Source: Anaerolineae bacterium (GTDB lineage: Bacteria; Chloroflexota; Anaerolineae; Anaerolineales; Anaerolineaceae). From it: DNA of 64,000 nt. This document shows positions 1,700-41,128 of the stretch, piece after piece. The notes below the pieces were generated by a model that was not told the origin of the DNA, did no database searches, and was given only the letters and a program-made list of their open reading frames with translations. The position numbers and the translations under genes are program-made. Location of the stretch: positions 1 to 64,000 of the forward strand of contig JABUFD010000008.1 of the NCBI GenBank assembly GCA_013314735.1, read 5' to 3'. Positions within the stretch are counted from its first letter, which is position 1, and each line of letters starts with the position of its first letter.

Positions 1700-1909
1700 C
1701 ACAGCAGCCGGGCGTGAATCAATGGAAAAGCACCCCTAAGTTACCCGGTGGGTGTACAATCAGCAGTATGAAGGCGCATCTGCGCTGATCACCTTGAGTG
1801 GTGGATTGGCTGCATCGTGGCAGCTGAATTAATTTGGTTTTCTTGCGACGTCACCAAATCTTCAAATCCAGCACAACTCCCGCAAATTCACAGACAAAGG
1901 AGACCTCAG

Positions 1910-22011: not shown

Positions 22012-22026
22012 TAGACAAACAATCAT

Positions 22027-22062
22027 ACAACCCCGCCAGCTTTGGCGGGGTTGTATGTTACT
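22027..22062 (+). terminator. rho-independent terminator after the DUF438 gene
   Basis: acaaccccgcc / ggcggggttgt stem followed by atgttactttg. Confidence 0.55.
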
Positions 22063-22185
22063 TTGCCCTATCACAAAACTACAATTTTTTTTGCATATAT
22101 ACACAAATGGCCACTCGCCATTGCGGGTTAAGGCGTTACCGAACCACCTGGTTCAAATTAACTATGATCGATCTTCATGTTTTCC

Positions 22186-22893
22186 CTAAAAATTCTTAAA
22201 TCTATCCCTGATTTTTTTATAAACTTCTTGATTTTTCTGATGGTCTAAATGGCTACTTTTAGGTTTTCGAATAAGCTTAAATTGATCACAGTTACATCCA
22301 AATTTGTTGCAGAGCTTTGACACATTGCCACCATTAACTCCCCCCAAAACAATCAACACACTCGGCGCTAATGCGTTAATTGTAGGGTGAGTAAACTTTA
22401 TCCAAGAATTTTTGCGCGTTTCCGGTGTCTCCCTTTCATTATCAGTTGTACGATACGGTAGCAAATTGATAAACGCAAATTGAGAGAAGTCTTGATATGT
22501 TAATTCTTGGATTTTTTCAAATGCTTCCCAAATCTCCCAATACTTCACAACCTTTGCATAGACCTTATTGGTTATCTCAAATTGTGCCACAACATTGGTT
22601 CGATGTTCTTTTGAGAAGGTTAATTGTTTAAACTTTCGAAGTTCAGGATACAAAATTTCATTACCATTATCCTTCTTTGAACCACCTCCGCCCCCAGGAT
22701 TTCTTCCAATAATCAGTACTCCACCTGGTTGATAGTTGATGCCAATATATCCTGCATGCATAACCTTAGCATCTTCAACATCTACATCAGGCATCAATTC
22801 ATCGGCAAATCCAAAAATCTCCTCCCTTGGTATTTGGGTCATTCGCCACATATGCTCAGCAATTCGAGTTCGGAATTCATCTAAACTACTCAT
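22186..22893 (-). CDS. hypothetical protein encoded in an AT-rich (~35-40% GC) island; Gly-rich loop IGRNPGGGGGS
   Basis: Clean 235-aa ORF with K/N/I-rich codon usage unlike the rest of the window; no family assigned with confidence. Confidence 0.55.
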   Translation of the reverse strand: MSSLDEFRTRIAEHMWRMTQIPREEIFGFADELMPDVDVEDAKVMHAGYIGINYQPGGVLIIGRNPGGGGGSKKDNGNEILYPELRKFKQLTFSKEHRTNVVAQFEITNKVYAKVVKYWEIWEAFEKIQELTYQDFSQFAFINLLPYRTTDNERETPETRKNSWIKFTHPTINALAPSVLIVLGGVNGGNVSKLCNKFGCNCDQFKLIRKPKSSHLDHQKNQEVYKKIRDRFKNF

Positions 22894-23205
22894 CCTTCCT
22901 CCTCAATTACTCCTAAATAACTCAAATCAGGATTGTAAGATTTATTTCGTAGAAACTTGAATATACTTCTGTTAATTATTTTACACTCAACGCCACAAAC
23001 TTTGATAAAGAAACAATCATATCATCCGTTCATAGAAATACACTGCCATCCATAAAAAGGGGAGCACCCTCTATCTTAATGCTAGTCCTACTGGGGAATG
23101 CATTAAAACCAGTGGTGATGGTATACATGGTTTGGTAGCTCGAGATTACCAACAGTAGATACTTTGCGCAGGATTCTCATGCTATAATCGAAAAGAGGTG
23201 TATTA

Positions 23206-23514
23206 ATGAGTGTGCAAGTACGAATCCCGGATGAACAAATCGCTGATTTCTGTCATCGGTGGAAGATTGTCCGCCTGGAAATTTTCGGCTCCGCCATCCG
23301 TGATGACTTTTCACGCACCAGTGATACCGATCTGCTGGTCGAATACCAGCCGGGATTTCACCGAACCGTAACAGATATGGAACAGATACAGGTCGAAATT
23401 GAAGCCTTATTTTCGCGGCCTGTCGACCTGATTACCCGGAGCAGCATCGAACACAGTCCCAATCCATATAAACGTAAAAACATCCTTGGACAGGCGCAGG
23501 TGATTTATGGATAA
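23206..23514 (+). CDS. MntA-like minimal nucleotidyltransferase (antitoxin-type NTase), orphan (no HepT partner)
   Basis: FGSAIRDDFSRTSDTDLLV matches the GS-x9-DxD nucleotidyltransferase motif. 102 aa; no HEPN gene downstream. Confidence 0.7.
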   Translation: MSVQVRIPDEQIADFCHRWKIVRLEIFGSAIRDDFSRTSDTDLLVEYQPGFHRTVTDMEQIQVEIEALFSRPVDLITRSSIEHSPNPYKRKNILGQAQVIYG

Positions 23515-23546
23515 ATGCGACTCAGTCTTGCCCGGCTCCCATCCCC

Positions 23547-24356
23547 TTACGCAAACAGCAGCAGGCTGAGGGCCATCACCACCATCCCGCCGATCACACC
23601 GCCGATGGCGATGTGGTGCTTGCCGTATTCCTCGGCGGTCGGCAGCAGTTCATCGAGCGAAATATACACCATGATCCCCGCCACCGCGGCGAAGATCACC
23701 CCGAACAGGGTATCGTTGAAGATCGCGCGCAGGATGAAGTACCCCAGGATCGCGCCCACCGGTTCGGAAAAGCCCGACAGCACCGAGAGCCACAGCGCCT
23801 TGCGGCGGCTCTTGGTGGCATAATACACCGGCACCGAAACCGCGATCCCTTCCGGGATGTTGTGGATCGCGATCGCCACGGCGATACTCACCCCCAGCGC
23901 GGGGTCTTTCAGCGCGCCCATGAAGGTCGCCAGGCCTTCGGGGAAGTTGTGGATGGCAATCGCCAGCGCCGAGAACATCCCCATCCGCAGCAGTTTCTTG
24001 CGGTCGGTTTCATCGGTGTAGCCGGCCTCATCGATGTTCTTGATCTCGTGCGGGTTCTCAAAGGAAGGCACCAGGTTATCGATCAGCGCGATCAGCGCCA
24101 TACCGGCGAAGAACGAAACCACCGTCACCCAGTAGCCGCCCTTCTCGCCGAGGGTAACGGTGAGGGCATCTTTGGCCTTAAAGAAAATTTCAACCAGCGA
24201 GACATAGATCATCACCCCGGCCGAGAACCCCAGCGCGCCGGAGAGGAAATTGGGGTTGAATTTCTTCGAGAAGAAGGCCATCATGCTGCCAATCCCCGTG
24301 GAAAGGCCGGCAAACAGGGTGAGTCCCAGGGCAAAGAGAACATCCGGTGTGATCAT
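23547..24356 (-). CDS. zupT: ZIP family zinc/metal transporter
   Basis: Eight TM helices; signature HNFPEG and HNIPEG motifs. Confidence 0.85.
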
Positions 24357-24412
24357 GTGTACCTCTGTGAGCGTTTGAATCGAACACGTTCATTATACTC
24401 CCCTCATGCGGT

Positions 24413-26119
24413 TTGCGGTACAATTTCCCCATGCACCTCGATTCCCTCTCCCTGGCCTGCTGGAAGGAAGAAACCAGCCGCAGCCTGCTCCCCGCACGGG
24501 TGCAGAACATCCTGCATGTGGACCCGCTTTCGTTCGGGTTTGAGCTGTATGCCGGGCAGCGCTACAACCTGCTGCTGTCGGCGGATGCCGCCCGGCCGCG
24601 CGCGGTGGTGGTGCCCTACAAGCTGCGCCGCGGCGTCGATGCCCCCCACCCGCTGCTGCTGCAACTGCGCAAGCACCTCGAAGGCGCGCGCCTGGTGGGC
24701 ATCAGCCAGCCGCCGTGGGAGCGCATCCTCAACTTCCACTTTGAAACCCCCGGAGCGCGCTTCACCCTGGTGGCCGAGATGATGGGACGCTATTCCAACC
24801 TGGTGCTGCTGGATGAAACCGGCACGGTGCTGGAAGCCGCCAAGCGCATCAGCCTGCGCCTCAACCGCCAGCGCAGCATCCTGCCCGGGCACCCCTACCA
24901 GCTGCCGCCGCTCCCCGCCGGCCGCGAAGCCCCCACCGCAGTCGACTGCGCCGCCCTCCTTTCCCGACAAAATCCACGGCAAGACCTGGCCGCGCTCCTC
25001 AGCCAGCATGTGCTGGCGGTCAGCCCCACCCTGGGGCGCGAAATCCAGCACCGCCTGGAACAGCGCGGCGAGATCACCCCCCACGCCCTGCGCGCCTGCC
25101 TCGATGAATTTTTCAGCACATCCGCCGTTTTTGCCCCCGCGCTGGGGTATGACGCGCAGAACCACCTGACAGCGTTTGCCGCCTATCCCCTCACCCACTG
25201 CACCCGCACCGAACCCGCCGCAAGCCTGAATGACGCCCTGCTGGAGTACCTGAGCCACGGCCAGGCGGTGGACGCCTACGCGCGTGCCCGCGGCAGCGTG
25301 GAAGCGCACCTGGCAGCGGCGATCGGGAAAACCGAACACCGCGCGGCGCAGATGCGCGCCCAGCAGGCCGACCCGGCCGTCATCGACCGCCTGCGCGAGG
25401 ACGGCGAACTGCTGCTGGCCTACCAGCACCTGGTGCAGCGCGGGATGGATTCGGTGACCGTACCGGATTACGAGGGCAACCCGCGCGAGATCCGGGTCGA
25501 GCCGCGCGTCAAAGCCAGTGAGAACGCGGCGCACTATTTTCAGCGCTACGAAAAAGCCAAACGCGCCGCCGCCGAAATGCCGCGCCGCGTGGCAAAAGTG
25601 GAAGCCGAACTGGCCTGCCTGCGCCAGCTGGCAGCCGACCTGGCCATCGCCACCACCCGCCCGCAGATCGATGCCGTCTACAATGCGCTGGCAGAGGGCG
25701 GTTACATTCGCACCCGCGCCAAACGCCCGCGCGTGCAGGAGAGCGCCCCGCTGCGTTTCGCGGTGGCGGGCTTCACGGTGTGGGTGGGGCGCAGCGCGCG
25801 CCAGAACGAGCAGGTCAGTTTCAAGCTCGCCAGCCCCGAAGACACCTGGCTGCACGTGCACGATTCCCCCGGGGCGCACGTCATCATTCAAAGTGGCGGG
25901 CAGGCGCTGCCGGCCGAAGTGCTCCAGTTCGCAATGCAGGCGGCGGCCTATTATTCGCCCCTGCGCCTGCAGGGCGGCGGCGCCCAGGTGGACTGCACCC
26001 TGCGCAAATACGTGCGCCGGGTCCCCGGCGGCCACCCGGGTTTGGTGACCTATTCCGAAAGCACCAGCCTGTGGGTGGCGGATGCGGCAAAGGAACCGGT
26101 GATCGCGCCCCAGCCTTAA
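24413..26119 (+). CDS. NFACT-family RNA-binding protein (RqcH / fibronectin-binding protein A-like, DUF814)
   Basis: N-terminal NFACT-N block and C-terminal WVGRSARQNEQVSFKLASPEDTWLHVHDSPGAHVII (NFACT-R/DUF814) match RqcH. Confidence 0.75.
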   Translation: MRYNFPMHLDSLSLACWKEETSRSLLPARVQNILHVDPLSFGFELYAGQRYNLLLSADAARPRAVVVPYKLRRGVDAPHPLLLQLRKHLEGARLVGISQPPWERILNFHFETPGARFTLVAEMMGRYSNLVLLDETGTVLEAAKRISLRLNRQRSILPGHPYQLPPLPAGREAPTAVDCAALLSRQNPRQDLAALLSQHVLAVSPTLGREIQHRLEQRGEITPHALRACLDEFFSTSAVFAPALGYDAQNHLTAFAAYPLTHCTRTEPAASLNDALLEYLSHGQAVDAYARARGSVEAHLAAAIGKTEHRAAQMRAQQADPAVIDRLREDGELLLAYQHLVQRGMDSVTVPDYEGNPREIRVEPRVKASENAAHYFQRYEKAKRAAAEMPRRVAKVEAELACLRQLAADLAIATTRPQIDAVYNALAEGGYIRTRAKRPRVQESAPLRFAVAGFTVWVGRSARQNEQVSFKLASPEDTWLHVHDSPGAHVIIQSGGQALPAEVLQFAMQAAAYYSPLRLQGGGAQVDCTLRKYVRRVPGGHPGLVTYSESTSLWVADAAKEPVIAPQP

Positions 26120-26146
26120 AAAGGTATCCCGTTACCCCTCTTGTAT

Positions 26147-26269
26147 TGTCTATAAAAATGGCTACAATCATGGATAGTATTCTCTGCAGCCATCGGCGAT
26201 TGATCATGAATGTGATCAATTTTCCTGAACAGGCGGGGAATCATCGAAGAGGATCGAGGAGTGTACAGC
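26147..26269 (+). promoter_or_regulatory. promoter (TACAAT at 26163) plus ~100-nt leader, identical to the leader of the downstream paralog
   Basis: 26163-26272 is base-for-base identical to 29483-29592. Contains a uORF (MDSILCSHRRLIMNVINFPEQAGNHRRGS..) overlapping the kinase start out of frame. Confidence 0.5.
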
Positions 26270-29200
26270 ATGCCCTACATGGTAGATCATCGGTACCTGG
26301 TAGGTGAACAATTGGGTGTGGGAGGCATGGGCGCGGTGTACCGCGGCAAAGACACCCGCCTGCAGCGCGATGTCGCCATCAAGCGCCTGCAGATTTTTGG
26401 ATCCCAGGCGGATGTTGATCAGTTCATGAAGCGTTTCGAACGCGAAGCGATTGCCATGGCGCAGCTGCAGCATCCCAATATTGTTGGTGTCCTCGATTTT
26501 GGGCAGGATGATCAAGGCATTTTCCTCATCCTGCAATATATGCCCGGCGGATCGTTGAAGGACCGGATGACTGCCCCGTTCAATCCGCAATCAGCCGCTG
26601 CCCTGCTGGCGCCGATCGCTGACGCGCTGCATTACGTCCATGATCAGGGCATGATCCACCGCGATGTCAAACCCGGCAATATCCTGTTTGACGCGCGCGG
26701 CAACCCCATGTTGGCGGATTTCGGCATCGTCAAGCTGGTGGAGGATACTCCTGGTGCCACCCTGACCGGAACCGGTACGGCGATTGGCACACCCACCTAC
26801 ATGGCGCCTGAACTGATTGGCGGGGAATTTGACCACCGGGTGGACCAATATGCCCTGGGCATTATTTTTTATGAAATGGTCACCGGGAAGGCACCCTTCA
26901 CCGGGCGCACGCCGATGGAAGCGATGGTGGCACACAAGTATGAACCCCTGCCGGATCCGCGCCTTTTGTGCCCCGGCCTGCCGCAGGACGCCTGGGACCT
27001 GATCGTGCGCGTATTGGCGAAGGACCCTGAACAGCGTTACGAGGACAGCGGGCAATTTTCCGCCGCGCTGCGCCGGCTGGGACAGCCCCCCACCCCAACC
27101 CCGCAACCGCAGCCGAAACCCGGCGAAGAACCCACCAGCCTGGTGGAAGACGAACTGCCCTTCAACCTCCCCGCCAAAACGCCGCAACCGCCTGCGCCGG
27201 GGATGCAGGCGGTATCAGAGGAGGATGAAACCCAGGGCGTCATCACACCTGGCAAAGGTACACCCGTGCCCCCGCCGCCATTTGTTGGGAATGAAACCCC
27301 AGGAGGCGCTCCGCTTTCTGCGCCATCCCTGGTGCGTGATGAAGCCTTAAAGCCACCTGCCAAGAAGAAGCGCGCCTGGGTATGGGTTCTGGGGGGCCTG
27401 GGTGTACTTCTCTTTTTGGGTGTGGCCCTGGTGCTGTTGATCACCATGCTGACCAAAGGGATTATGGAACCTGCAGCAACCCAGGTGGCACAAACCCATC
27501 TGGAGACCAAAGTTCCGACCATTACATCCCGACCCCAGCCCACCGTTACGCCCACACTCCCCTCTCAGATCGATAACAACACAGCTTCTGCTTTGCAAGT
27601 AAAAACGAGGATCGGAAAGGGGAACGCCAATATTGCTCTCTATTCACCCGATGGCAGTCTGCTGGTGATTGGCAATTCCAGCGGGTTCTACCTGCTGGGT
27701 GCTGATACCGGCAAAGAACTGTCTTCTGTACAGGATATCTATGTAACTTCGCTGGCAATCGCCCCCAGCGGGAATGCCCTTGCGACTTTGGACCAGGATG
27801 GCTACCTGACCCTGTGGGACATTCAAAACAAATTTGCGCCCGCCATTCTGCAGCAATATCCTGCTGCTGCGCCTGGCGCTTCGTTGAGGGCAGCCACGTT
27901 TTCACCTGACGGTAACAGCCTGGCCTATGCGGATTACGATACCATTTTTTTCTATTCCTTTGAGTCAGGGACAGTTACTGGCCAGGTTGAGTGGACTGAC
28001 AGCAATATATCACAGCTACAATTCAATCCTGATGGACAGTCCATTTACGGCGCAGCAAATCAATTGGGTCTGATTGGCTTGTGGGATATGAACACTTTGA
28101 GTCTAACGACTACCTTCCCGGTAGGTTTTGTTTTCAATTTCGCACTTGCCCCCGATGGATCGCTGTTGGCAGTTTATGATAGCAATGAGGGCACCCTGAA
28201 ATTTTTCAAACCTGCCAATGCATCCCAATTTATGGAACCAATCCAAACAAATGGTTATGTCAGTGACCTTGCCTTTTCAGCTGACGGCGCCAGTTTGTAT
28301 GGAGCCATCAATGGTAACACGATCAGTCGTTGGATCTTAGTGGATGATCGCTCACAACTGACTTATCCATTAAATAATGACCAGGCTTATTTGTTTGATC
28401 TCGCGCCGGATGGCAGCAGCCTTGCCTGGACAGGATTCGGCGCTGTCGGTGTTTTTGATTTTGATACTGAACAAGCCAAATTTGATACCGATCAATTTGA
28501 TTATACCGGGGTTCTGGTGGAAGGATGGGTGAATGGAGAAGTTCTGTATGTCAACGATGATCACAACGGTTCTGTCATTCTGAGGAATACCAGCGGAATT
28601 GCGAAACAACACCTTGATTCTACCGCCATCACAACCTGGTTGGATTCCGTCACTGTCTCTTCCAATGGGCAATACCTGGCAGCCAGGTCCTATGTGAATG
28701 GCGCCATTGTTCTGCTGGTCTGGGATCTGAATACAAAACAGCTGTTAAAGCAAGTTCCGCTTGCTGATTGGGTCGGTGACTTTCGGTTTTCTGATGACAG
28801 TCAATTTTTAACAGTGGTGAATGGCATGACTGCCACTGTGTATCGAACTGATACCTGGGGAATCCATTACGGATATACTGTTACCGATGCTGCATTAACG
28901 ATCGCAAAATACTATCCCGAGTTTGATCTCCTGGTGCTTGCGGGGTATGGGCGACCGTTGTTGATCAATCCACTCAGCGGCTATACCGTTGAATTGCCAT
29001 TGAATGTCCCTGCCGAGGGTGTTTTCGATCTGGAACTATCCAGGGATGGCAGCCTGCTCTTCCTGGTCAGCGGGAAAAGCCTGTTGATCTGGAATATTCC
29101 CGACCAAACGTTTGTCCTCGAAGCCTATGACTTGCTGCCGAATAATGCGGTTGAGCTGGCGCTCAATACCAGTGAGACCCTGCTGGCGATCGGCGATAAC

Positions 29201-29359
29201 ATTGGCAATATCGTGTTTTTGGACCTGACAACCAATATAATACTGGGTGTGTTGCGGCAACATTTCGCCTCGATCCGGTGGTTGACGTTCAGTGTTGATG
29301 ACCACGAGTTGATCTCATTCGGTGATGACGGCATAACCAACATTTGGGGAATCCAATAA
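26270..29359 (+). CDS. Ser/Thr protein kinase - Pro-rich linker - TM - C-terminal beta-propeller (WD40/PQQ-like repeats)
   Basis: GVGGMGAVYRGKD, VAIKRL, HRDVKPGNILF, DFGIVKL, GTPTYMAPE. Hydrophobic helix WVWVLGGLGVLLFLGVALVLLI. Repeated ~40-aa blocks with SPDG/APDGS..L..G..DG.. motifs. GAGGAG RBS 9 nt before ATG 26270. Confidence 0.85.
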   Translation: MPYMVDHRYLVGEQLGVGGMGAVYRGKDTRLQRDVAIKRLQIFGSQADVDQFMKRFEREAIAMAQLQHPNIVGVLDFGQDDQGIFLILQYMPGGSLKDRMTAPFNPQSAAALLAPIADALHYVHDQGMIHRDVKPGNILFDARGNPMLADFGIVKLVEDTPGATLTGTGTAIGTPTYMAPELIGGEFDHRVDQYALGIIFYEMVTGKAPFTGRTPMEAMVAHKYEPLPDPRLLCPGLPQDAWDLIVRVLAKDPEQRYEDSGQFSAALRRLGQPPTPTPQPQPKPGEEPTSLVEDELPFNLPAKTPQPPAPGMQAVSEEDETQGVITPGKGTPVPPPPFVGNETPGGAPLSAPSLVRDEALKPPAKKKRAWVWVLGGLGVLLFLGVALVLLITMLTKGIMEPAATQVAQTHLETKVPTITSRPQPTVTPTLPSQIDNNTASALQVKTRIGKGNANIALYSPDGSLLVIGNSSGFYLLGADTGKELSSVQDIYVTSLAIAPSGNALATLDQDGYLTLWDIQNKFAPAILQQYPAAAPGASLRAATFSPDGNSLAYADYDTIFFYSFESGTVTGQVEWTDSNISQLQFNPDGQSIYGAANQLGLIGLWDMNTLSLTTTFPVGFVFNFALAPDGSLLAVYDSNEGTLKFFKPANASQFMEPIQTNGYVSDLAFSADGASLYGAINGNTISRWILVDDRSQLTYPLNNDQAYLFDLAPDGSSLAWTGFGAVGVFDFDTEQAKFDTDQFDYTGVLVEGWVNGEVLYVNDDHNGSVILRNTSGIAKQHLDSTAITTWLDSVTVSSNGQYLAARSYVNGAIVLLVWDLNTKQLLKQVPLADWVGDFRFSDDSQFLTVVNGMTATVYRTDTWGIHYGYTVTDAALTIAKYYPEFDLLVLAGYGRPLLINPLSGYTVELPLNVPAEGVFDLELSRDGSLLFLVSGKSLLIWNIPDQTFVLEAYDLLPNNAVELALNTSETLLAIGDNIGNIVFLDLTTNIILGVLRQHFASIRWLTFSVDDHELISFGDDGITNIWGIQ

Positions 29360-29367
29360 CTTTTGTA

Positions 29368-29400
29368 AGAAAAGGGCAGCCTTTGAGCTGCCTTTTTCTT
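29368..29400 (+). terminator. candidate rho-independent terminator between the kinase paralogs
   Basis: aaaagggcagc / gctgccttttt hairpin with T-tract. Confidence 0.45.
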
Positions 29401-29466
29401 ACTCAAATTACCTGGCAATCCGTTTTCCCATACGCCACATTCTTCGGTTGCTTTCCCCTCTTGCAT

Positions 29467-29589
29467 TGTCATCTGAAAGGGTTACAATCATGGATAGTAT
29501 TCTCTGCAGCCATCGGCGATTGATCATGAATGTGATCAATTTTCCTGAACAGGCGGGGAATCATCGAAGAGGATCGAGGAGTGTACAGC
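29467..29589 (+). promoter_or_regulatory. duplicate promoter/leader (identical to 26147-26269)
   Basis: Identical 110-bp stretch including TACAATCATGGATAG and the RBS. Confidence 0.5.
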
Positions 29590-32500
29590 ATGGCCTACAT
29601 GGTGGATAATCGTTATCTGGTCGGTGAACAACTCGGCGTTGGCGGCATGGGTGCGGTCTACCGCGGCAAAGACACCCGCCTGCAGCGCGATGTCGCCATC
29701 AAGCGCCTTAACATCCTGGGGGGAAAAGCCGAAGTCGATCAGTTCATGAAACGTTTCGAACGCGAAGCGATTGCCATGGCGCAGCTGCAGCACCCCAACA
29801 TCGTGCGCGTACTCGATTTTGGGCGGGATGATGAAGGCATCTTCCTCATCCTCGAATTCATGTCCGGCAGGTCGCTGAAAGAGCGCATGACAGCCCCCTT
29901 TGATCCGCGCGCGGCAGCAATCCTGCTGGCGCCGATCGCCGATGCGCTGCATTATGTGCACGAACGGGGCATGATCCACCGTGATGTGAAACCCGGCAAC
30001 ATCCTGTTTGACGCGCGCGGCAACCCCATGCTGGCGGATTTCGGCATTGTCAAGCTGGTGGAGGAATCCCCCGGTGCCACCCTGACGGCGACGGGCATGG
30101 CGGTGGGTACGCCCACTTACATGGCGCCGGAGTTGATCGGGGGTGAATTTGACCACCGCGCCGACCAGTACGCGCTGGGGATCATCTTTTATGAAATGGT
30201 GACCGGCAAACCGCCCTTTAAGGGCCGCACGCCGATGGAAGCGATGGTGGCACACAAGTATGAACCCCTGCCGGATCCGCGCCTTTTGTGCCCCGGCCTG
30301 CCGCAGGATGCCTGGGACCTGATCGTGCGCGTATTGGCGAAGGACCCTGAACAGCGTTACGAGGACAGCGGGCAATTTTCCGCCGCGCTGCGCCGGCTGG
30401 GACAGCCCCCCACCCCAACCCCGCAACCGCAGCCGAAACCCGGCGAAGAACCCACCAGCCTGGTGGAAGACGAACTGCCCTTCAACCTCCCCGCCAAAAC
30501 GCCGCAACCGCCTGCGCCGGGGATGCAGGCGGTATCAGAGGAGGATGAAACCCAGGGCGTCCGTACCCCCGCGCGGGGGCTGCCGCTGGCACAGCCGCAA
30601 TATCACTGGGAACCGCAGCCAGCCGCGTCGGTTCAACCTGCCCCGCCCACCCCTGCGGCGGTTGCGGCGAAGAAAACAATCCCTGCCTGGGCCTGGGTGC
30701 TGGGAGGGGTTGGCCTGTTCACGATGGCAACCCTGGTGGTGGTGGCGGTGCTCCTGATCCGCAACGGGCTGTTCTCACCGGCTGCCACAGAAGAACCCTA
30801 CGCGTTCGAAGCGGCCACCGAAGCGCCAATGGCCGCGGCGGAAGAAACCGCCACGCAAGGGCCAACCGAGGCCCCCACCGCAAGCATGGTGCTTTCCGGC
30901 GGGGTGATCACCGCCGCCAACGTTGACCAGCTGCAGCCTGCATCCATCTTCGGCAAAGGCGGCGACCATCTCCCGCTCTTCACCCCCGATGGACGTTTCC
31001 TCCTGCTGGGCAACACCGACGGGCTGTATGTGTTCGATGCCGTCAGCGGGGTGGAGATCAGCCACACGCCGGGCCGCTACATCACCGCCATGGCGCTTTC
31101 GCCGGACGGCAGCGCCCTGGCCACGTTGGATTACAGCGGTTACCTCAGCCTGTGGTCGATCGGCGACGGCAGCGCGCCTTACCTGTTCCAGGCCTACCAG
31201 TACCAAGGCGGCAACAACTGGGACCTGCGCGCGCTGGCCTGGTCGCCCGACGGCAGTGTGATCGCCTTCAGTGACGCCTACACGATCTACTATTATTCCG
31301 TTGAAAAAAATGATGTTTTCAACACGGCTTATTGGGAAAACAGCCTGATCCGCGACCTGGCGTTCAGCCCGGACGGCAACCTTGTGTATGCCGCCGCCAA
31401 CAACCTCGCCTTGGTGGGGGTGTGGATCGCTGAAACTTCCACCCTGTACACCACCATTCCGGTCAATTACCCCTACTATATCGACCTATCGCCGGATGGA
31501 ACGCGCCTGGCGGTGTTTGACGCCGAGGAATACAGCCTGAAGCTGTTCAGCCTCTCCTCCTACCTCCTGGAACGCGCCTACAGTGTTGACGGGTACATGA
31601 ATGAAATGCGCTTTTCCCCTGATGGCACCGCCCTGTATGCCGTCCTCAGCAACGGCCAGGTCAACCGCTGGGAGGTGGGCGGCAGTGACCAGCCCCTCAC
31701 GCGCCAGCTGCCGGAAGGCTATGGCACACGCTTCTCGCTGTCGCCCGGCGGCTGCCTGGCGGCCTGGAGCAACTGGCTCCGGGTTGGAACCTACGACCTG
31801 TGTCAGGGTACCCCGGGTTTCTCCCTGGATGCTTTCACCACCCGCGGTAACCCGGTGAGGGGCTGGGTGAACGATGAATTGCTGTTCTCCGATACAGAGA
31901 GCCAACCGGGGCGGGTGCTCATCCGCGATATCTTCGGCGATGTGCGCCATGGGCTGGACATCTCATCCTACAACACCTGGATGTACCCGGTCAGCATTTC
32001 CCCCGACGGCACCACCCTGGTTGGCGGGGTGTATTACCAGAACACCTACAATATCCTGCTGTTCGACCTGGCTTCGGAATCGCTGCTGGGGATGTTCGCG
32101 GTGGATGAATATCCAATCGACCTGCGCTTTGCGCCAGACAGCCAGTCTTTTGTCTACTGCGGCAGCAGCCTCACCCGCATTTACAATATTCACAACTGGT
32201 GGGAGGGACCGTTCTACAGCCTGGATGGGTTGGAATACATGCAGGTGGGCAAGTATTTCCCGGCCTATGACCTGCTTGTGCTGGGCCAGTTCGCGAAAGT
32301 GCAGCTGGTATCACCGGCCAGCGGGGAAAGGTTCGAGCTGCCTGTGCCGGGGGGATATGTGGAAGGGATCGCGCTTTCCGCTGACGGCAGCCGGGTATAC
32401 GTGGCCAGCGGCCGTTCCCTGTACGTGTACGACCGCCGGACGGGTGCCTTTGTGGCGCAAGCCCCGGACAGCCTCCCGACAGAAGGATATGCGCTTGCCC

Positions 32501-32697
32501 TGAATGGGTCGGAAACCCTGCTGGCAGTCGGCGATACGCAGGGCGCGATTCACCTGTTCGACGCGCAAAACCTGGGCTGGGTGCGCACCCTCTACCGCCA
32601 CACCTACGGCATGGCAGACCTGCAGTTTGCGCCCGATGACCGGGCATTAACCTCCACCGGTTGGGATGCCCTGAGCGTGGTGTGGGCCGTGCCGTAA
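29590..32697 (+). CDS. Ser/Thr protein kinase - linker - TM - beta-propeller, paralog of 26270-29359
   Basis: Kinase domain ~90% identical at protein level to the upstream paralog; the identical PTPTPQPQPKPGEEPTSLVEDELPFNLPAKTPQPPAPGMQAVSEEDETQGV linker is retained. The C-terminal repeat domain has diverged. Confidence 0.85.
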   Translation: MAYMVDNRYLVGEQLGVGGMGAVYRGKDTRLQRDVAIKRLNILGGKAEVDQFMKRFEREAIAMAQLQHPNIVRVLDFGRDDEGIFLILEFMSGRSLKERMTAPFDPRAAAILLAPIADALHYVHERGMIHRDVKPGNILFDARGNPMLADFGIVKLVEESPGATLTATGMAVGTPTYMAPELIGGEFDHRADQYALGIIFYEMVTGKPPFKGRTPMEAMVAHKYEPLPDPRLLCPGLPQDAWDLIVRVLAKDPEQRYEDSGQFSAALRRLGQPPTPTPQPQPKPGEEPTSLVEDELPFNLPAKTPQPPAPGMQAVSEEDETQGVRTPARGLPLAQPQYHWEPQPAASVQPAPPTPAAVAAKKTIPAWAWVLGGVGLFTMATLVVVAVLLIRNGLFSPAATEEPYAFEAATEAPMAAAEETATQGPTEAPTASMVLSGGVITAANVDQLQPASIFGKGGDHLPLFTPDGRFLLLGNTDGLYVFDAVSGVEISHTPGRYITAMALSPDGSALATLDYSGYLSLWSIGDGSAPYLFQAYQYQGGNNWDLRALAWSPDGSVIAFSDAYTIYYYSVEKNDVFNTAYWENSLIRDLAFSPDGNLVYAAANNLALVGVWIAETSTLYTTIPVNYPYYIDLSPDGTRLAVFDAEEYSLKLFSLSSYLLERAYSVDGYMNEMRFSPDGTALYAVLSNGQVNRWEVGGSDQPLTRQLPEGYGTRFSLSPGGCLAAWSNWLRVGTYDLCQGTPGFSLDAFTTRGNPVRGWVNDELLFSDTESQPGRVLIRDIFGDVRHGLDISSYNTWMYPVSISPDGTTLVGGVYYQNTYNILLFDLASESLLGMFAVDEYPIDLRFAPDSQSFVYCGSSLTRIYNIHNWWEGPFYSLDGLEYMQVGKYFPAYDLLVLGQFAKVQLVSPASGERFELPVPGGYVEGIALSADGSRVYVASGRSLYVYDRRTGAFVAQAPDSLPTEGYALALNGSETLLAVGDTQGAIHLFDAQNLGWVRTLYRHTYGMADLQFAPDDRALTSTGWDALSVVWAVP

Positions 32698-32808: not shown

Positions 32809-32829
32809 ATGATGTGGATACGGGGCGGG

Positions 32830-34623
32830 TTATTTGCCCAGCCGCGCCAGTTCCGCCGCCACGATGCTTTCATCGAGCTTGACGAACAGCGGTTCGGGTT
32901 TATTAAAGGCGCGCCCGGCCTGCAATGCACTCGGCTGCCACTGCCCGGCGGCAGCAGCGGGGTCGTAGCGCAGCACGCTGTGGCTGCCGAGGGTGTCGGC
33001 GGCCTCCTGCGTGAAACCGCTGCCGAACAGGGGTTGTTCGTAATGGAGGAAGCCGTGCAGTTTTTCACTGCTGAAGGGCAGGAACGGTGCGAACAGCACC
33101 TTGAGCGAGTCGATCGCGCGCATGGCGGTGAAAATCGCCCGCGCCGCGGCGGTCTCATCGGTTTTGACCACCTTCCACGGCTCGGTCACATCGAGGTACT
33201 TGTTGACCTCACTCGCCAGGCGGATGCATTCTGCCAGCGCCGCGCGCAGCTTCACGCCTTCGATCAACTCGCCGACCGTGCCAAACCCGGCCTCGATCGC
33301 CGCCAGCAGTTCGCTATCGAGCGCAGTCAGCTCGCCCGGTTCGGGGATCACGCCGTTCCAGCGCTTGTGGGCAAAGCCCAGCACGCGGTTGGCCAGGTTG
33401 CCCCAGGTGGCAATCAGTTCGCCGTTGTTGCGGTTGTAAAAGTCCTCCCACGCCCAATCGGTGTCCTTGGTTTCGGGCATGGTCATCGTCAGGTAATAGC
33501 GCAGGGGGTCGGGGTCGTAGCGCTCGAGGTAATCGAGCACCCACACGCCCCAGTTGCGGCTGCCGGAAATTTTCTGCCCCTCCATGTTCATAAACTCATT
33601 GGCGGGTACATCATAAGGCAGCACCAGCGGCTGCGGGTCGGCGGCGCCCATCAGGGCGTCAAAATCGGTGCCGGCGCCCAGCAGTTCCGCCGGCCAGATG
33701 ATGGCATGGAAGGGGATGTTGTCCTTGCCGATGAAGTAATAGGTTTTGGAAGCGGGGTTGGTCCACCATTCGCGCCATGCGTCGGGCTGGCCGGTGAGTT
33801 TGGCGTACTCCACCGCCGCCGAAAGGTAGCCGATCACGGCCTCGAACCACACGTACAGGCGCTTGCCGTCCCAGCCTTCCAGCGGCACGGGGATGCCCCA
33901 CTCCAGGTCGCGCGTGATGGCGCGCCCGCGCAGGGGGTTGTTCTCGATCTGCCCCAGCGATTGGCGGATCACATTCGGGCGCCAATAGCTTTCGCGCTGG
34001 CGCAGGAAATCAGCCACCTCGCCTTCCAGCGCGCCCAGGTCGAGGAAGAAATGCTCGGTATCGCGCAACTCGGGGGTGGAGCCGTCCACCTTGGAGCGCG
34101 GGTCGATCAGTTTGTCGGCTTCCAGCAGGCTGCCGCACTTGTCGCACTGGTCGGAACGGGCGTTGTCGTAGCCGCAGATGTAGCAGGTGCCTTCCACGTA
34201 GCGGTCGGGCAGGAATTTGCCCTGGGCGGGCGAATACCACTGCTTCTGGGTATCGGTATAGAGGTAGCCGTTTTCCTTCAGGACTGTGAACAGCTTTTGC
34301 GCCACATCGAAATGGTTTTCGGTGTGGGTGCTGGTAAAGAGGTCATAGGTGATGCCGGTTTTCTGGAACAGGTCGAGAAAACGGTGGTGGAAGCGCTGGT
34401 AGATGTCCAGCGGGGTGGCGTTCTCGGCATCGGCGCGCACGGTGATGGGTGTGCCGTGGGCGTCGGTGCCGGACACCATCAGCACCTGGCGGCCGCGCAT
34501 GCGGTGGTAGCGCGCGACAATATCCGCCGGCAAATGCGAGCCGGTCATATTTCCCACATGAATATCGGCGTTGCCGTACGGCCACGCCACGCACACCAAT
34601 ACAGGTTCAGCCATAGCGATCAT
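32830..34623 (-). CDS. metG: methionine--tRNA ligase
   Basis: Class I aaRS with HVGN (HIGH-type) motif, zinc knuckle CYICGYD..CDKCG, and GQKISGSRNWGV (KMSKS-type) motif. 597 aa. Confidence 0.85.
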   Translation of the reverse strand: MIAMAEPVLVCVAWPYGNADIHVGNMTGSHLPADIVARYHRMRGRQVLMVSGTDAHGTPITVRADAENATPLDIYQRFHHRFLDLFQKTGITYDLFTSTHTENHFDVAQKLFTVLKENGYLYTDTQKQWYSPAQGKFLPDRYVEGTCYICGYDNARSDQCDKCGSLLEADKLIDPRSKVDGSTPELRDTEHFFLDLGALEGEVADFLRQRESYWRPNVIRQSLGQIENNPLRGRAITRDLEWGIPVPLEGWDGKRLYVWFEAVIGYLSAAVEYAKLTGQPDAWREWWTNPASKTYYFIGKDNIPFHAIIWPAELLGAGTDFDALMGAADPQPLVLPYDVPANEFMNMEGQKISGSRNWGVWVLDYLERYDPDPLRYYLTMTMPETKDTDWAWEDFYNRNNGELIATWGNLANRVLGFAHKRWNGVIPEPGELTALDSELLAAIEAGFGTVGELIEGVKLRAALAECIRLASEVNKYLDVTEPWKVVKTDETAAARAIFTAMRAIDSLKVLFAPFLPFSSEKLHGFLHYEQPLFGSGFTQEAADTLGSHSVLRYDPAAAAGQWQPSALQAGRAFNKPEPLFVKLDESIVAAELARLGK

Positions 34624-34714
34624 CCTCCAAATGGAACAATTTGTAGCGAAATTGTATCATGAAGGGCAATGCGCGGGGAAGTTAAGATCACCCTTCGACA
34701 GCACTTCGGCAGCA

Positions 34715-35075
34715 CTTCGGCAGGCTCAGTGTGAAGCTCAGTGCAGGAGCTCAGGGAGCGTATTATTTCAACGGTCGCCGAGCGGGTTCCTGAGCCTGTC
34801 GAAGGATCGAGGCGACATTCTGCGGGTAACTTACGTTCTCCCCTCGACACACTTCGACAGGCTCAGTGCAGGAGCTCGGGGAGCGTGTTAATGGGGTGCG
34901 TGTTAACGCAACGGTCGCCGAGCGGGTTCCTGAGCCTGTCGAAGGATCGAAGCGACATCCTCCGTCCAAGGCGACATTCTGCGGGTAACTTACGTTCTCC
35001 CCTCGACACACTTCGACAGGCTCAGTGCAGGAGCTCGGGGAGCGTTTTTAAAGGGTGCGTGTTAATGGGCCGGGT
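34715..35075. repeat. left flanking copy (2+ tandem units) of a hairpin repeat (T family: cctgagcctgtcgaagg ... cttcgacaggctcag)
   Basis: Units at 34771-34918 and 34911-35075 share acggtcgccgagcgggttcctgagcctgtcgaagg..gcgacattctgcgggtaacttacgttctcccctcgacacacttcgacaggctcagtgcaggagctcggggagcgtgttaatgg. Same family and orientation at 44170-44400. Confidence 0.75.
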
Positions 35076-35210: not shown

Positions 35211-37259
35211 ATGCACGCCGCCGATTTCACCGAGATTTCCAATTTCATCTGGAATACCGCCGACCTGATCCGCAATTACTTCAAGCGTGGGCAGTACCAG
35301 TCCGTCATCCTGCCCTTCACGGTCCTGCGCCGCATTGACAGTGTGCTGGTGCCCACCAAGCAGGCTGTCCTGGCAGAATACCACAAACGCAAAGGGGAGA
35401 TCGATGACCTTTACCCACGGCTCACCCGCGTTTCGGGCTATGCTTTCTACAACACCTCGCCCTACACCTTCGAGAGCCTGCTGGATGACGCCCCCAACCT
35501 GGCCGCCAACCTGATGGCCTACATCAACGCCTTTTCCCCCAACATGGTCGAGGTGCTGGAGAAGTTCAAGTTCCCCACCATCGTCAAAGAACTGGACGAT
35601 GCCAACCTGCTCTTCCTGGTGATGCAGCATTTTAAGAACATCGACCTGCACCCGGGGCATGTGCCCAACCTGGCGATGGGCTACATCTTCGAAGACCTGA
35701 TCCGCCGCTTCAACGAAGCCCTCAACGAGAACCCCGGCGAGCACTACACCCCGCGCGAGGTCATCCGCCTGATGGTGAACCTGCTCCTGACCGATCCCGA
35801 CCCCGCCTGGCTGCTGCCCAATATCGTCCACAAGGTGTATGACCCGTGCTGCGGCACTGGCGGCATGCTCACCATTGCCCGTGACCGCATCCTGGAACTC
35901 AACCCGCAGGCCGATGTGCGCCTGTTCGGGCAGGAGCTCAACCCCGAAACCTGGGCGGTGTGCAAGTCGGATATGTTCCTCAAAAGCGCTGACGGCCGCG
36001 ACGCCGACAACATCCGCAGTGAATCGTCGCTCTCCAAAGACAAGTTCAAAGAGGAAACCTTCAATCTGCTCCTCACCAATCCCCCGTATGGCATGGATTG
36101 GAAATCGGAAAAGGAATTCATCGACAAGGAAGCCGCCCTGGGTTCGCGTGGGCGCTTCAGTGCCGGTACACCGCGAGTTTCCGATGGCCAACTGCTGTTC
36201 CTGCAGCACCTGATCAGCAAGATGGCTGCCCCGGTGGAAGGTTCCGGCGGGGCGCGCATCGCGATCGTCCTCAACGGTTCGCCGCTCTTCACCGGCGACG
36301 CCGGCTCGGGTGAATCCGAGATTCGCCGCTGGATCCTGGAGCATGACTGGCTCGAAGCGATCATCGCCCTGCCGGAGCAGCTCTTTTACAACACCGGCAT
36401 TGCCACCTATATCTGGCTCCTCACCAACCACAAGCCCGCCGCGCGCCGCGGCAAGGTGCAATTGATCGACGCCACCGGTATGTGGACCCCGATGCGCAAA
36501 TCGCTGGGCGACAAGCGCCGTGAAATTGGCGAGGCGCAGATCACCGAGATCACCCGCATCTTCCACGCCTTCGCGGAAAGCGAGCGCTCGAAAATCTTCG
36601 ACACCACCGCCTTCGGCTTCCGCAAGATCACAGTCGAACGCCCGTTGCGCCTCAACTTCCAGGCCAGTGCGGAGCGCATCGCGCGCCTGCATGAGGAAAC
36701 CGCCTTCAAGAACCTGGCCGCCAGCAAGAAGAAGAACCCCGCCGACCGCCGGGAGGAAGAAGCCGCCGGGCGCGCCCTGCAGCAGGACCTGCTCACTACC
36801 CTGAACACCCTGCCCGGCGAGGTATTCACCGACCGCGCCCGCTTTGAGAAAGCCCTCGACAAAGCCCTGCGCCAGGCCGGGCTGAAGCCCCCCGCCGCGC
36901 TGCGCAAGGCCATCCTCAACGCGCTTTCCGAACGCGACGAAAACGCTGCCCCCTGCCGCGACAGCAAGGGCAATCCCGAACCCGACCCCGACCTGCGCGA
37001 CACGGAGAACGTCCCGCTGGGCGAGGCCATCGAAGACTACTTTGCGCGCGAGGTGCTGCCCTACGTGCCCGATGCCTGGATTGCGCCCGACAAGACCGAT
37101 GCCCTCGACGGCCGGGTGGGCGTGGTGGGTTACGAGATCAACTTCAACCGCTACTTTTACCAATACCAGCCCCCGCGCCCGTTGGCGGAGATCGAAGCCG
37201 AGATCAAGGCGCTGGAGCGGGAGATCATGAGTTTGTTAGGAGAGATGACAGATGAATGA
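35211..37259 (+). CDS. hsdM: type I restriction-modification system, N6-adenine methyltransferase subunit
   Basis: N-terminal HsdM-N block (FIWNTADLIRNYFKRGQY..VILPFTVLRR), SAM motif DPCCGTGGML, catalytic LLTNPPYG. Confidence 0.9.
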   Translation: MHAADFTEISNFIWNTADLIRNYFKRGQYQSVILPFTVLRRIDSVLVPTKQAVLAEYHKRKGEIDDLYPRLTRVSGYAFYNTSPYTFESLLDDAPNLAANLMAYINAFSPNMVEVLEKFKFPTIVKELDDANLLFLVMQHFKNIDLHPGHVPNLAMGYIFEDLIRRFNEALNENPGEHYTPREVIRLMVNLLLTDPDPAWLLPNIVHKVYDPCCGTGGMLTIARDRILELNPQADVRLFGQELNPETWAVCKSDMFLKSADGRDADNIRSESSLSKDKFKEETFNLLLTNPPYGMDWKSEKEFIDKEAALGSRGRFSAGTPRVSDGQLLFLQHLISKMAAPVEGSGGARIAIVLNGSPLFTGDAGSGESEIRRWILEHDWLEAIIALPEQLFYNTGIATYIWLLTNHKPAARRGKVQLIDATGMWTPMRKSLGDKRREIGEAQITEITRIFHAFAESERSKIFDTTAFGFRKITVERPLRLNFQASAERIARLHEETAFKNLAASKKKNPADRREEEAAGRALQQDLLTTLNTLPGEVFTDRARFEKALDKALRQAGLKPPAALRKAILNALSERDENAAPCRDSKGNPEPDPDLRDTENVPLGEAIEDYFAREVLPYVPDAWIAPDKTDALDGRVGVVGYEINFNRYFYQYQPPRPLAEIEAEIKALEREIMSLLGEMTDE

Positions 37260-39150: not shown

Positions 39151-39300
39151 GCCAATGGCCATGCGCACAACCAGCAACGCTCCTGCCAATTGCTTGCACG
39201 CGGCTGTGCTTTGCGCTATACTATTCACCAGTAAACCCGCCAAGCCTCTGCCCCATTGGGGCATGCGCCACTGTGGTGGGTGTTTCTTTTTGGGGGCAGC

Positions 39301-40629: not shown

Positions 40630-41128
40630 CAACCTGGTCAAAGACTTTGCCCAACGCACGCGCGAGAACCTGGCCTACATTGACGCCGCCCATGCCCGCG
40701 GCGAAAACGTGTACGAGGTCACCCAGCTGGTCAATTCCTTGCTGGGGCTGTTGATCTTCCCCCAGCAGCGCTGGGTTAACCGTGTTCCGCGCATCGGTCT
40801 CGAAGAACTGGTGCGGCGCGGCTGGCCGGAAATCCATCCCACCCCACGCATCCAGGCAGATGCACACTTTCAACAGGCCGATAACCTGCATGACCTGGTG
40901 CGCGTTCTGCGCAATTCCATTGCCCACTGCAATATCGAAATTTCGGATGTGGATGCCAACAACGAGATATGCGGCCTGCGCATCTGGAACATCAACCGTC
41001 AGGGAGATAAAACCTGGGAGGCGGAGCTATCCATCGCCGACCTGCGCGCATTGGCAGAAAATTTTGCTGTGCTAATGACGCAGGACCCGCGCAATTGGGG
41101 ATCAGCCGCAGGAGGGGAACACCCATGA
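40619..41128 (+). CDS. small HEPN-like protein (R-x4-H motif LRNSIAH) translationally coupled between hsdS and hsdR
   Basis: 169 aa. RBS GAGGAGG before ATG 40619, which overlaps the hsdS stop; its stop overlaps the hsdR ATG (ATGA). RNSIAHCN fits the HEPN R-x4-6-H motif; the family assignment is tentative. Confidence 0.5.
   Translation: MDYNNLVKDFAQRTRENLAYIDAAHARGENVYEVTQLVNSLLGLLIFPQQRWVNRVPRIGLEELVRRGWPEIHPTPRIQADAHFQQADNLHDLVRVLRNSIAHCNIEISDVDANNEICGLRIWNINRQGDKTWEAELSIADLRALAENFAVLMTQDPRNWGSAAGGEHP

Follow-up and report, generated by a model that had tools for sequence, protein, structure and literature searches.

Patchy gene conversion as the probable source of a base-identical leader in two old tandem receptor-kinase genes of an Anaerolineae bacterium

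Introduction

How can two neighbouring genes keep the same non-coding leader, base for base, while much of their coding sequence has drifted apart? An earlier note on an Anaerolineae contig (JABUFD010000008.1) raised this question for a pair of tandem kinase genes. It read the identity as a sign either of gene conversion that is still going on or of selection acting on the leader, and it suggested a cis-regulatory RNA or control through an upstream open reading frame (uORF). We analysed the pair within its window, that is, the whole 64-kb stretch of DNA under study, and in comparison with related kinase loci from other genomes.

Results

Two receptor-type kinases in separate transcription units

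The window contains three kinase genes, two of which form the pair studied here:

26270..29359, plus strand: kinase A, 1029 aa, with a Hanks kinase domain (aa 10-257), a Pro-rich linker, a transmembrane (TM) helix and a WD40-type ectodomain of ~630 aa
27371-27469, plus strand: TM helix of kinase A, about aa 370-394, from hydropathy
29590..32697, plus strand: kinase B, 1035 aa, built like kinase A
30688-30774, plus strand: TM helix of kinase B, about aa 372-395, from hydropathy
1910-4069: third kinase paralogue of the window, in which the leader is absent

Kinases A and B are tandem neighbours, 3320 nt apart from start to start, and both encode a PknB-like Ser/Thr kinase followed by one membrane helix and a WD40-type propeller of ~630 aa. 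The kinase A protein is identical to an NCBI entry ('MAG: protein kinase [Anaerolineae bacterium]'). Scoring 176.9 and 177.7 bits for PF00069, where the cut-off is 31.7 (Pfam Pkinase E values 6.9e-52 for kinase A and 3.9e-52 for kinase B), both proteins belong to the Hanks-type (PknB-like) kinases. The best PDB match of the kinase domain is PknB (1mru, E 3.9e-52), and the catalytic motifs GVGGMG (aa 16), VAIK (aa 35), HRDVKPGN (aa 130), DFG (aa 150) and APE (aa 179) are intact in both. The ectodomains are WD40-type propellers according to PF00400 (41.8 and 57.3 bits, cut-off 27); many further propeller families in Pfam match as well, the WD-40 repeat protein 2ymu of the PDB is matched with E 9.8e-35, and a motif count gave 11 'SPDG'-like blade motifs per protein. 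Each protein has one hydrophobic stretch with a basic cluster before it (KKKR in kinase A, KK in kinase B), and the propeller is predicted to be extracytoplasmic, an orientation taken from the positive-inside rule only.

Signals for transcription were found around both genes:

26141..26168, plus strand: putative sigma-70-type promoter of kinase A, with -35 TTGTAT (26141-26146), a 16-nt spacer and -10 TACAAT (26163-26168), predicted from sequence
29461..29488, plus strand: putative promoter of kinase B, with -35 TTGCAT, a 16-nt spacer and -10 TACAAT, predicted from sequence and alignment
29368..29399, plus strand: intrinsic terminator of kinase A; its hairpin is rich in G+C and has the loop CUUUGA, and the A-run before it pairs with the T-run after it (13 bp in total)

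The terminator is strong (dG -19.4 kcal/mol, z -4.8, with 0 of 200 shuffles as good). Since it lies between the genes and the promoter boxes are duplicated, kinases A and B would form two transcription units. The terminator scan had put the kinase A terminator on the minus strand. The kinase A promoter went unlisted in the consensus scan because its -35 matches TTGACA at only 3 of 6 positions.

A mosaic of identity and divergence

Alignment of the two copies revealed two tracts of near-complete identity around an older, diverged segment:

26163..26272, plus strand: identity tract 1, copy A, comprising the -10 box, a 5' leader of ~95 nt, the RBS and the ATG; 110/110 identical to 29483-29592
29483..29592, plus strand: identity tract 1, copy B; 110/110 identical to copy A
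26273..26905, plus strand: old-diverged kinase-domain segment, codons 1-212 without the ATG itself; 82% nucleotide identity
26906..27241, plus strand: identity tract 2, copy A, kinase C-lobe and cytoplasmic Pro-rich linker, codons 213-324; 335/336 identical to 30226-30561
30226..30561, plus strand: identity tract 2, copy B; 335/336 identical to copy A

The first base of tract 1 is the T of TACAAT and its last is the G of the kinase ATG (26270-26272 and 29590-29592); the RBS GAGGAG (26256-26261) lies inside it. Its ends thus sit on functional landmarks, the start of the -10 and the start codon. Because selection would keep the -10, RBS and ATG identical regardless, the true ends of the tract are uncertain by ~10-15 nt. 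A 99-nt probe found no sites in the window other than these two, where none would be expected by chance, and the leader has a G+C content of 47% in a window of mostly 55-69%. The earlier description of promoter, leader and RBS as 100% identical holds for the -10, the leader and the RBS; it fails for the -35, which differs by one base (TTGTAT versus TTGCAT), and for the spacer. In total, 9 of the 31 positions in 26132-26162 are mismatched between the copies. These are distributed unevenly: the -35 block is conserved (2/19 mismatches), whereas the last positions of the -35/-10 spacer are scrambled (7/12), a pattern in keeping with the predicted promoter.

Downstream of tract 1, identity falls to 82% over 636 nt, returns to 335/336 and then collapses to ~50% with indels. 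In codons 1-212, the 636 nt between the tracts, pS is 0.515, dS 0.87 and pN 0.071, and 37 of the 71 fourfold sites are identical. In codons 213-324 all 48 fourfold sites are identical, the lone mismatch is synonymous and dS is 0.012. When 114 mismatches were placed uniformly over 1079 nt, an identical run of at least 110 arose in 26 of 100,000 trials. No simulated run was longer than 136; the observed runs are 252 and 110, and a run of 252 was never reached.

At the protein level, kinase and linker (codons 1-324) are 91% identical (86% in codons 1-212 and 100% in codons 213-324), in agreement with the ~90% first reported for the kinase. The strong divergence of the propellers is likewise confirmed: the ectodomains are collinear homologues over 614 aa with 35% identity, and across TM helix plus ectodomain amino acid identity is 31-36% with synonymous sites saturated. 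That the coding sequences have diverged applies to codons 1-212 and the ectodomain; the 336-nt tract with its one mismatch had been missed.

Gene conversion as the probable cause of the mosaic

Homogenised tracts that are flanked by diverged homologous sequence are the mark of gene conversion, and this is what we found, both in the coding region (pS 0.012 versus 0.515) and at the leader (0/110 mismatches versus 9/31 upstream). The synonymous contrast between codons 1-212 and 213-324 means that protein-level selection cannot account for the mosaic. Of the two processes proposed for the pair, gene conversion is therefore strongly supported, as a 336-nt coding tract with dS 0.012 directly adjoins 636 nt with dS 0.87. 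Concerted evolution by gene conversion between prokaryotic paralogues is documented, including in a prokaryote-wide survey (PMC6053082). We give a probability of about 0.75 to the reading that patchy conversion of the 5' module in an old duplicate explains the base-identical leader.

Once conversion is granted, the absence of differences in the leader is unremarkable, since simple arithmetic with the tract 2 rate predicts ~1.3 per 110 nt. If the leader changed at the same rate as replacement sites of the kinase domain (pN 0.071), a stretch of 110 nt would be free of differences with a probability of about 3e-4, so that the leader would need more constraint than the catalytic domain. Two points speak against conversion. 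That tract 1 ends on functional landmarks is somewhat unexpected for a random tract, a point softened by the uncertainty of its ends, and two recent tracts around an old segment need two events or patchy heteroduplex repair. An origin of the 110 nt from a mobile element was rejected, as the stretch is not bounded by terminal inverted repeats and homology extends beyond it on both sides.

Could the identity instead stem from a very recent duplication of the whole gene, or from an assembly or polishing artefact that collapsed the copies? The tandem arrangement at 3320 nt would suit either, and the source is metagenome-assembled, where a few SNPs within near-identical repeats can be lost through bubble-popping or polishing. 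However, the flanks are old: codons 1-212 have a dS of 0.87, the ectodomains share 35% of their residues, synonymous sites are saturated and the spacer is scrambled, its randomisation (7/12) by itself implying an old duplicate. Polishing, moreover, acts only on sequences that are already near-identical and cannot make sharp 100%/82% boundaries. We consider this explanation very improbable. A very recent duplication as such was rejected, given a dS of 0.87 and ectodomains with 35% identity; only the patches are recent, in copies that separated long ago. The earlier note had allowed for a very recent duplication if other kinase paralogues lacked the leader and the leader showed no structure or expression signal. 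In part this applies: the third kinase does lack the leader, sharing only a TACAATCA -10-like motif and the RBS in an alignment of the upstream regions, but the supposed recency was wrong.

The upstream open reading frame

The leader was also said to encode a 45-codon uORF that overlaps the kinase start in another frame. The frames are:

26170..26307, plus strand: 'uORF' of copy A, 45 codons; not considered a gene
29490..29609, plus strand: 'uORF' of copy B, 39 codons, with a tail that differs from copy A

An ATG-initiated open frame that overlaps the kinase start out of frame is indeed present in both copies, and such a frame might be translated and control kinase translation; 45 codons are found only in copy A. 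Its ATG (26170) lies one nucleotide after the -10 hexamer. Located in the promoter discriminator, it is upstream of any start of the TACAAT promoter, so that the proposed promoter and the uORF are mutually exclusive. A Shine-Dalgarno (SD) sequence was sought upstream of the uORF ATG (AAAAATGGCTACAATCATG) and none was found. The GC3 of the frame is 0.42-0.44 versus 0.62-0.86 in the genes of the window, that is, it lacks the codon bias of the genome. The copies end differently, and with zero substitutions between them in the leader coding constraint cannot be read. Judged by these features and a transcription start position deduced from the promoter, the frame does not rank as a regulatory uORF. 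We find control of the kinases by a translated 45-codon uORF hardly credible at all.

A palindrome in the leader

Within the leader lies a further element:

26199..26220, plus strand: perfect palindrome ATTGATCA-N6-TGATCAAT followed by TTTT; a 10-bp hairpin as RNA, a potential dimer-binding operator as DNA

This palindrome is the single feature that the conversion account leaves unexplained. A rival reading is that the leader works as a cis-regulatory element common to both genes (an operator bound by a dimeric DNA-binding protein, an RNA hairpin or attenuator, or an RBS-sequestering fold) and that selection keeps it identical, with conversion as the vehicle or without conversion. The perfect 8+8 palindrome lies ~25-45 nt downstream of the predicted transcription start (about 26174-26177) and its only sites in the 64-kb window are 26199-26220 and 29519-29540. 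The local hairpin (dG -9.6 to -11.2 kcal/mol, z -2.4, 6 of 200 shuffles equally good) precedes UUUU, and in the minimum free energy (MFE) fold the SD region is base-paired to CUCU (26182-26185). In addition, the coincidence of the tract ends with the -10 and the ATG and the 47% G+C would fit such an element.

Against it stand the comparative searches. The earlier note had suggested structure prediction and a covariance search for the leader. The whole-leader folds are no better than shuffles (z -0.46 and -1.28). An Rfam scan of the window at gathering thresholds found tRNA only and no known cis-regulatory RNA, and a permissive scan (E<=10) of 26120-26330 gave only noise, with E values of 2.5 and 8.3, far below gathering. 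To collect related loci, genome contigs were scanned with aa 1-330 of the kinase (best match 49% identical), and a covariance model built from the leader and its MFE structure was searched over 576 kb of these loci. It recovered the two input copies and two weak matches, with E 0.039 (locus L069) and E 0.62 (L068), the former on the opposite strand and downstream of its kinase. Leader-like sequence was absent by covariance model and nhmmer near more than 80 related kinase genes, and likewise upstream of the third kinase of the window. The exact leader 43-mer had no match in metagenome contigs. Covariation gives no information here, as the only two copies are identical.

Selection alone is implausible, because 110/110 exceeds any constrained part of the kinase while synonymous sites reached 0.5 differences per site, and because the coding tract shows that conversion has been active at the locus. 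A cis-regulatory RNA thus finds no support, and we regard a functional shared element of any of these kinds as unlikely. A more specific proposal, namely that the palindrome is an undescribed control element (operator of a dimeric regulator or weak attenuator) which co-regulates two kinases with different sensors, and that conversion tracts spanning just the -10-to-ATG segment were retained for that co-regulation, is speculative and appears rather improbable to us.

Two further candidates were rejected. A degenerate palindrome plus TTTT had 94 matches in metagenome contigs, none with the TGAATG loop or the leader flank (best nhmmer E 0.56), and these were read as chance. TTGATCA/GATC as a regulon or methylation motif was enriched versus dinucleotide shuffles but stayed at Markov expectation, as GATC is simply common here.

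Discussion

The reading that we favour, patchy conversion, would start from two old tandem paralogues, each its own transcription unit, that encode single-pass receptor Ser/Thr kinases. Gene conversion within the chromosome would have homogenised their 5' module, which begins with the promoter-proximal leader and extends as far as the cytoplasmic linker, patch by patch and with gaps. The 110-nt tract of -10, leader, RBS and ATG and the 336-nt tract of C-lobe and linker would be the recent ones; the 636 nt between them may have been homogenised much earlier (dS 0.87), yet after the ectodomains had split, while TM helix and ectodomain presumably diverged freely. As a by-product of recent conversion, the base-perfect leader does not imply constraint on every one of its bases.

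Sharing the -10, 5' UTR and RBS, both genes are probably under the same expression control. That different ligands feed one kinase output is a reasonable suggestion, in keeping with a homogenised cytoplasmic module and with the 31-36% identity beyond it. The pair may serve as an example of modular evolution, with concerted change in the cytoplasmic signalling module and in the signals for its expression, and with divergence in the membrane and ligand-binding parts, which would let one output pathway hear two inputs. It also calls for caution: a base-perfect non-coding tract between paralogues should not, taken alone, be read as evidence for a regulatory RNA, and here gene conversion is indicated as the cause because a nearby coding tract is identical at every fourfold site. 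Overall the locus is ordinary, since both the architecture of the kinases and the evolutionary process are known, and it opens no long-standing question.

Among known systems, the proteins resemble receptor kinases of the PknB/PknD type (Hanks type): the kinase matches PknB structures (E 4e-52), all catalytic motifs (GxGxxG, VAIK, HRD, DFG, APE) are present, and a single TM helix connects to a propeller as predicted extracytoplasmic sensor. In PknD of M. tuberculosis, the kinase is joined through a TM helix to a beta-propeller outside the cell. The sensors differ, however, since PknB carries PASTA repeats and PknD a six-bladed NHL propeller, whereas the sensor here is of WD40 type, with ~630 aa and roughly 11-14 blade motifs; being WD40 and not NHL, it does not belong to the PknD sensor family. 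Kinase-WD40 fusions of the PkwA type are known from Actinobacteria, Cyanobacteria and Planctomycetes (PMC6113231, PMC5587647, PMC2176072), and N-terminal Ser/Thr kinases with C-terminal WD40 repeats are reported to be frequent in prokaryotes (PMC5587647). Kinases A and B share with them this order of domains in one polypeptide, but here a TM helix sets the WD40 part, as predicted, outside the cell.

Orthologues of the pair were not found in the searched collections, in which the nearest other kinase domains are at most 57% identical (at most 49% in genome contigs). Relatives do have tandem arrays, with five consecutive genes in one locus (L081) and an adjacent pair in another case (P0029/P0034). 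The genes of these arrays follow closely on one another, apparently as operons, and have diverged evenly (66-74% at the nucleotide level), with a longest identical run of 32 nt, whereas in the pair studied here each gene has its own promoter, a terminator stands between the genes and conversion tracts occur. Conversion as a general trait of such arrays was rejected, as the five-gene array lacks long identical runs.

Concerted evolution between bacterial paralogues is exemplified by tufA/tufB and the rRNA operons. As in those cases, synonymous sites are identical and borders are sharp within otherwise diverged duplicates. Unlike them, conversion here is partial, patchy and confined to the 5' (cytoplasmic and regulatory) module, one of the tracts is almost entirely non-coding, and the genes encode signalling receptors, not high-dosage housekeeping functions.

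Two tandem putative receptor kinases

Read from the ATG, the tandem paralogs encode proteins of 1029 aa (kinase A, 26270-29359, plus strand) and 1035 aa (kinase B, 29590-32697, plus strand). Using Pfam, a protein kinase domain was found at aa 10-257 in both (E 7e-52 and 4e-52), followed by WD40-type propeller families over aa ~460-1030. Among solved structures, the kinase part is closest to M. tuberculosis PknB kinase domains (3.9e-52) and the C-terminal part to 2ymu, a WD40 repeat protein of cyanobacterial origin. The motifs GxGxxG, VAIK, HRD, DFG and APE are all intact in A and B. Each protein has one hydrophobic helix (~aa 370-394 in A, 372-395 in B) with a basic cluster ahead of it (KKKR and KK, respectively); by the positive-inside rule, we infer a cytoplasmic kinase and a ~630-aa propeller region outside the cell. 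An NCBI entry annotated 'MAG: protein kinase [Anaerolineae bacterium]' has the same sequence as kinase A, whose remaining database relatives reach at most 57% identity, in the kinase domain only.

Downstream of gene A lie a strong terminator-like hairpin with T-run (29368-29399; dG -19.4, z -4.8 versus shuffles) and, beyond it, a second promoter-like region, so each gene forms a transcription unit of its own, independently promoted and terminated. No functional link to the neighbours, an NFACT/RqcH-like gene upstream and a convergent metG downstream, is obvious.

Identity mosaic and probable gene conversion

Sliding comparison of both genes, together with codon-based counts, resolved five segments (copy A coordinates):

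within 26132-26162: promoter spacer, near-random between copies
26163-26272: -10, leader and ATG, 0 differences in 110 nt
26270-26905: codons 1-212, 82% nt identity, pS 0.515 (dS 0.87), pN 0.071
26906-27241: codons 213-324 (tract 2), a single difference (synonymous) over 336 nt, dS 0.012, fourfold sites 48/48 identical
from 27242: rest of linker, TM and ectodomain, 31-36% aa identity, pS about 0.7-0.75, saturated

Past 27242 identity drops away inside three bases, and the ectodomains remain collinear across 614 aa despite their divergence. Tract 2 takes in a Pro-rich low-complexity linker, and such linkers normally evolve fast. Since protein-level selection cannot equalise synonymous sites and this fast-evolving linker is included, tract 2 is best read as a recent gene-conversion tract, or an equivalent recombinational replacement. 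An earlier note had raised gene conversion for the shared leader; tract 2, which it did not notice, supports that proposal much more strongly. The duplication is old, and the recently homogenised tracts are confined to the regulatory and cytoplasmic module.

The leader fits the same explanation. At the divergence level of tract 2, ~1.3 differences are expected per 110 nt, so that conversion of similar age fully accounts for a leader with none. A leader of the same age as codons 1-212 would have needed tighter constraint than the catalytic domain's replacement sites to stay identical at 110/110 positions (at their rate, the probability is 0.929^110, about 3e-4). When 114 mismatches were placed at random over 1079 nt, a run of at least 110 occurred in 26 of 100,000 trials, and the longest run was 136. 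The shared identity is real and non-random. That it stems from an artefact or a recent duplication is very unlikely beside ectodomains with saturated synonymous sites.

Codons 1-212 have diverged less than the ectodomain (52% versus 30-34% of fourfold sites identical) and include uninterrupted identical runs of 50, 41 and 30 nt (26339-26388, 26432-26472 and 26681-26710), which suggests that the same 5' module was homogenised in earlier rounds too. These runs sit over the VAIK and alpha-C regions and could be what remains of older micro-conversion tracts, or else recombination anchors.

Base composition varies along gene A: GC3 is mostly 0.45-0.55 in its ectodomain (27500-29359; 0.64 in the final 300 nt), compared with 0.73-0.80 in gene B (compared part 30800-32697) and 0.82-0.86 in neighbouring genes. 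Gene A is thus compositionally chimeric with a 'native'-looking 5' module, and its 3' part could be of foreign origin or under relaxed codon bias. The pattern is compatible with conversion in which A was the recipient and B, or a gene resembling B, the donor.

Mechanistically, the tracts could have been produced by RecA-type gene conversion within the chromosome, acting on direct repeats that lie 3.3 kb apart, either in two events or through a single, patchily repaired heteroduplex. Both receptors would in this way retain the same C-lobe/juxtamembrane linker of the kinase and the same expression signals even as their sensors diverge, so that a single output would answer to two inputs.

The putative promoter region and shared leader

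Pairwise alignment and run analysis showed 26163-26272 and 29483-29592 to be identical at 110/110 positions, from the T of TACAAT to the G of the kinase ATG (26270 / 29590), and a 99-nt probe from this tract matched exactly two sites in the window (0 in 100 shuffles). Homology between the copies begins ~31 nt further upstream (26132 / 29452), where 9/31 positions differ. The earlier description of a base-identical promoter, leader and RBS consequently holds for the -10, leader and RBS, but not for the whole promoter. Features of the region are:

26256-26261, plus: RBS GAGGAG, 8 nt before the ATG
26199-26220: perfect palindrome ATTGATCA-N6-TGATCAAT, then TTTT
26170-26307, plus: ATG-initiated frame, copy A, 45 codons
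29490-29609, plus: ATG-initiated frame, copy B, 39 codons

In the upstream 31 nt, the block CCCCTCTTGyATTGTC, containing a -35-like TTGTAT/TTGCAT, has one mismatch between copies, and the other 12 promoter-spacer positions have 7. This footprint, with both boxes retained and the spacer scrambled, supports a plausible promoter TTGyAT-16 nt-TACAAT in front of both kinases. It was not called in a consensus promoter scan, because its -35 agrees with TTGACA at only 3/6 positions.

The same promoter speaks against the uORF that had been proposed to control both paralogs. The open frame exists, but its ATG lies one base past the TACAAT hexamer, within the discriminator, and a transcript from this promoter would therefore lack the uORF start; promoter and uORF are mutually exclusive. 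No Shine-Dalgarno sequence precedes it, its GC3 is 0.42-0.44 versus 0.62-0.86 in genes here (the third kinase being lowest), and its C-terminal tails differ because the diverged kinase 5' end is read out of frame. We rejected it as a gene, regard it as an open frame that arose by chance in a leader richer in A/T, and consider uORF control barely credible.

Nor did a cis-regulatory RNA find support. At gathering thresholds, Rfam returned nothing but one tRNA in the entire window, a permissive scan of the leader gave noise only, and the leader folds no better than shuffles (z -0.46 for 26170-26290; z -1.28 for 26175-26272). Using nhmmer and a covariance model, no leader-like sequence was detected in the vicinity of 80 related genomic kinase genes or in two related tandem arrays; none lies upstream of the window's third kinase, and an exact leader 43-mer was absent from the metagenome collection. 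The sole notable feature is the palindrome, present in perfect form at just two places in the window, one per leader copy. At the RNA level it makes a 10-bp, A/U-rich hairpin (z -2.4, dG about -10 kcal/mol); at the DNA level, a dimeric protein could bind there. Its degenerate form had 94 metagenome matches, all without any leader flank. Selection on the leader as operator or hairpin, in addition to conversion, is doubtful, and the palindrome is the only loose end deserving experiment.

Other features and related arrays

The third Hanks kinase gene (1753-4069, plus strand, ATG at 1910) carries a fused Bmp/PnrA-like substrate-binding domain, and its kinase domain is 44% identical to that of kinase A. 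~150 nt upstream of its start, TGTACAATCA recurs as a -10-like motif resembling that ahead of kinases A and B. A 617-aa plus-strand ORF lying downstream of kinase B (32809-34662) has no Pfam match and was rejected as a shadow of methionyl-tRNA synthetase. Between metG and hsdM, 34690-35070 holds dense nested direct repeats (units of 30-71 nt, 83-100% identity, period 125-160 nt) with a GGTCGCC...GGCGAC hairpin and no Rfam match. A defence island spans 35211-44139. At a low-GC island (22001-24000, 0.454; the window is mostly 0.55-0.69 G+C), the ORFs 22186-22893 (minus) and 23613-24782 (plus) have no Pfam match.

32830-34623, minus: methionyl-tRNA synthetase (tRNA-synt_1g, 1e-139)
35211-37259: type I restriction-modification hsdM, defence island
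37252-39150: GmrSD-family endonuclease, defence island, low-GC stretch (0.475)
41095-44139: hsdR, defence island

Kinase-WD40 tandem arrays recur in relatives, as five consecutive genes in L081 (1725-14534 of an ENA wood metagenome scaffold; 0-100 nt spacing, VWA/FHA protein alongside) and as an adjacent pair around the related protein P0034. These arrays are tightly packed, with paralogs uniformly 66-74% identical at the nt level and no identical run >32 nt, and no conversion tracts were found among the L081 paralogs. Given this uniform divergence, the conversion mosaic is peculiar to the pair A/B rather than to the family. Both proteins belong to a known architecture, kinase-WD40 fusions being common in prokaryotes (PMC5587647, PMC6113231, PMC2176072), and gene conversion between paralogs is a well-known process in bacteria (PMC6053082).
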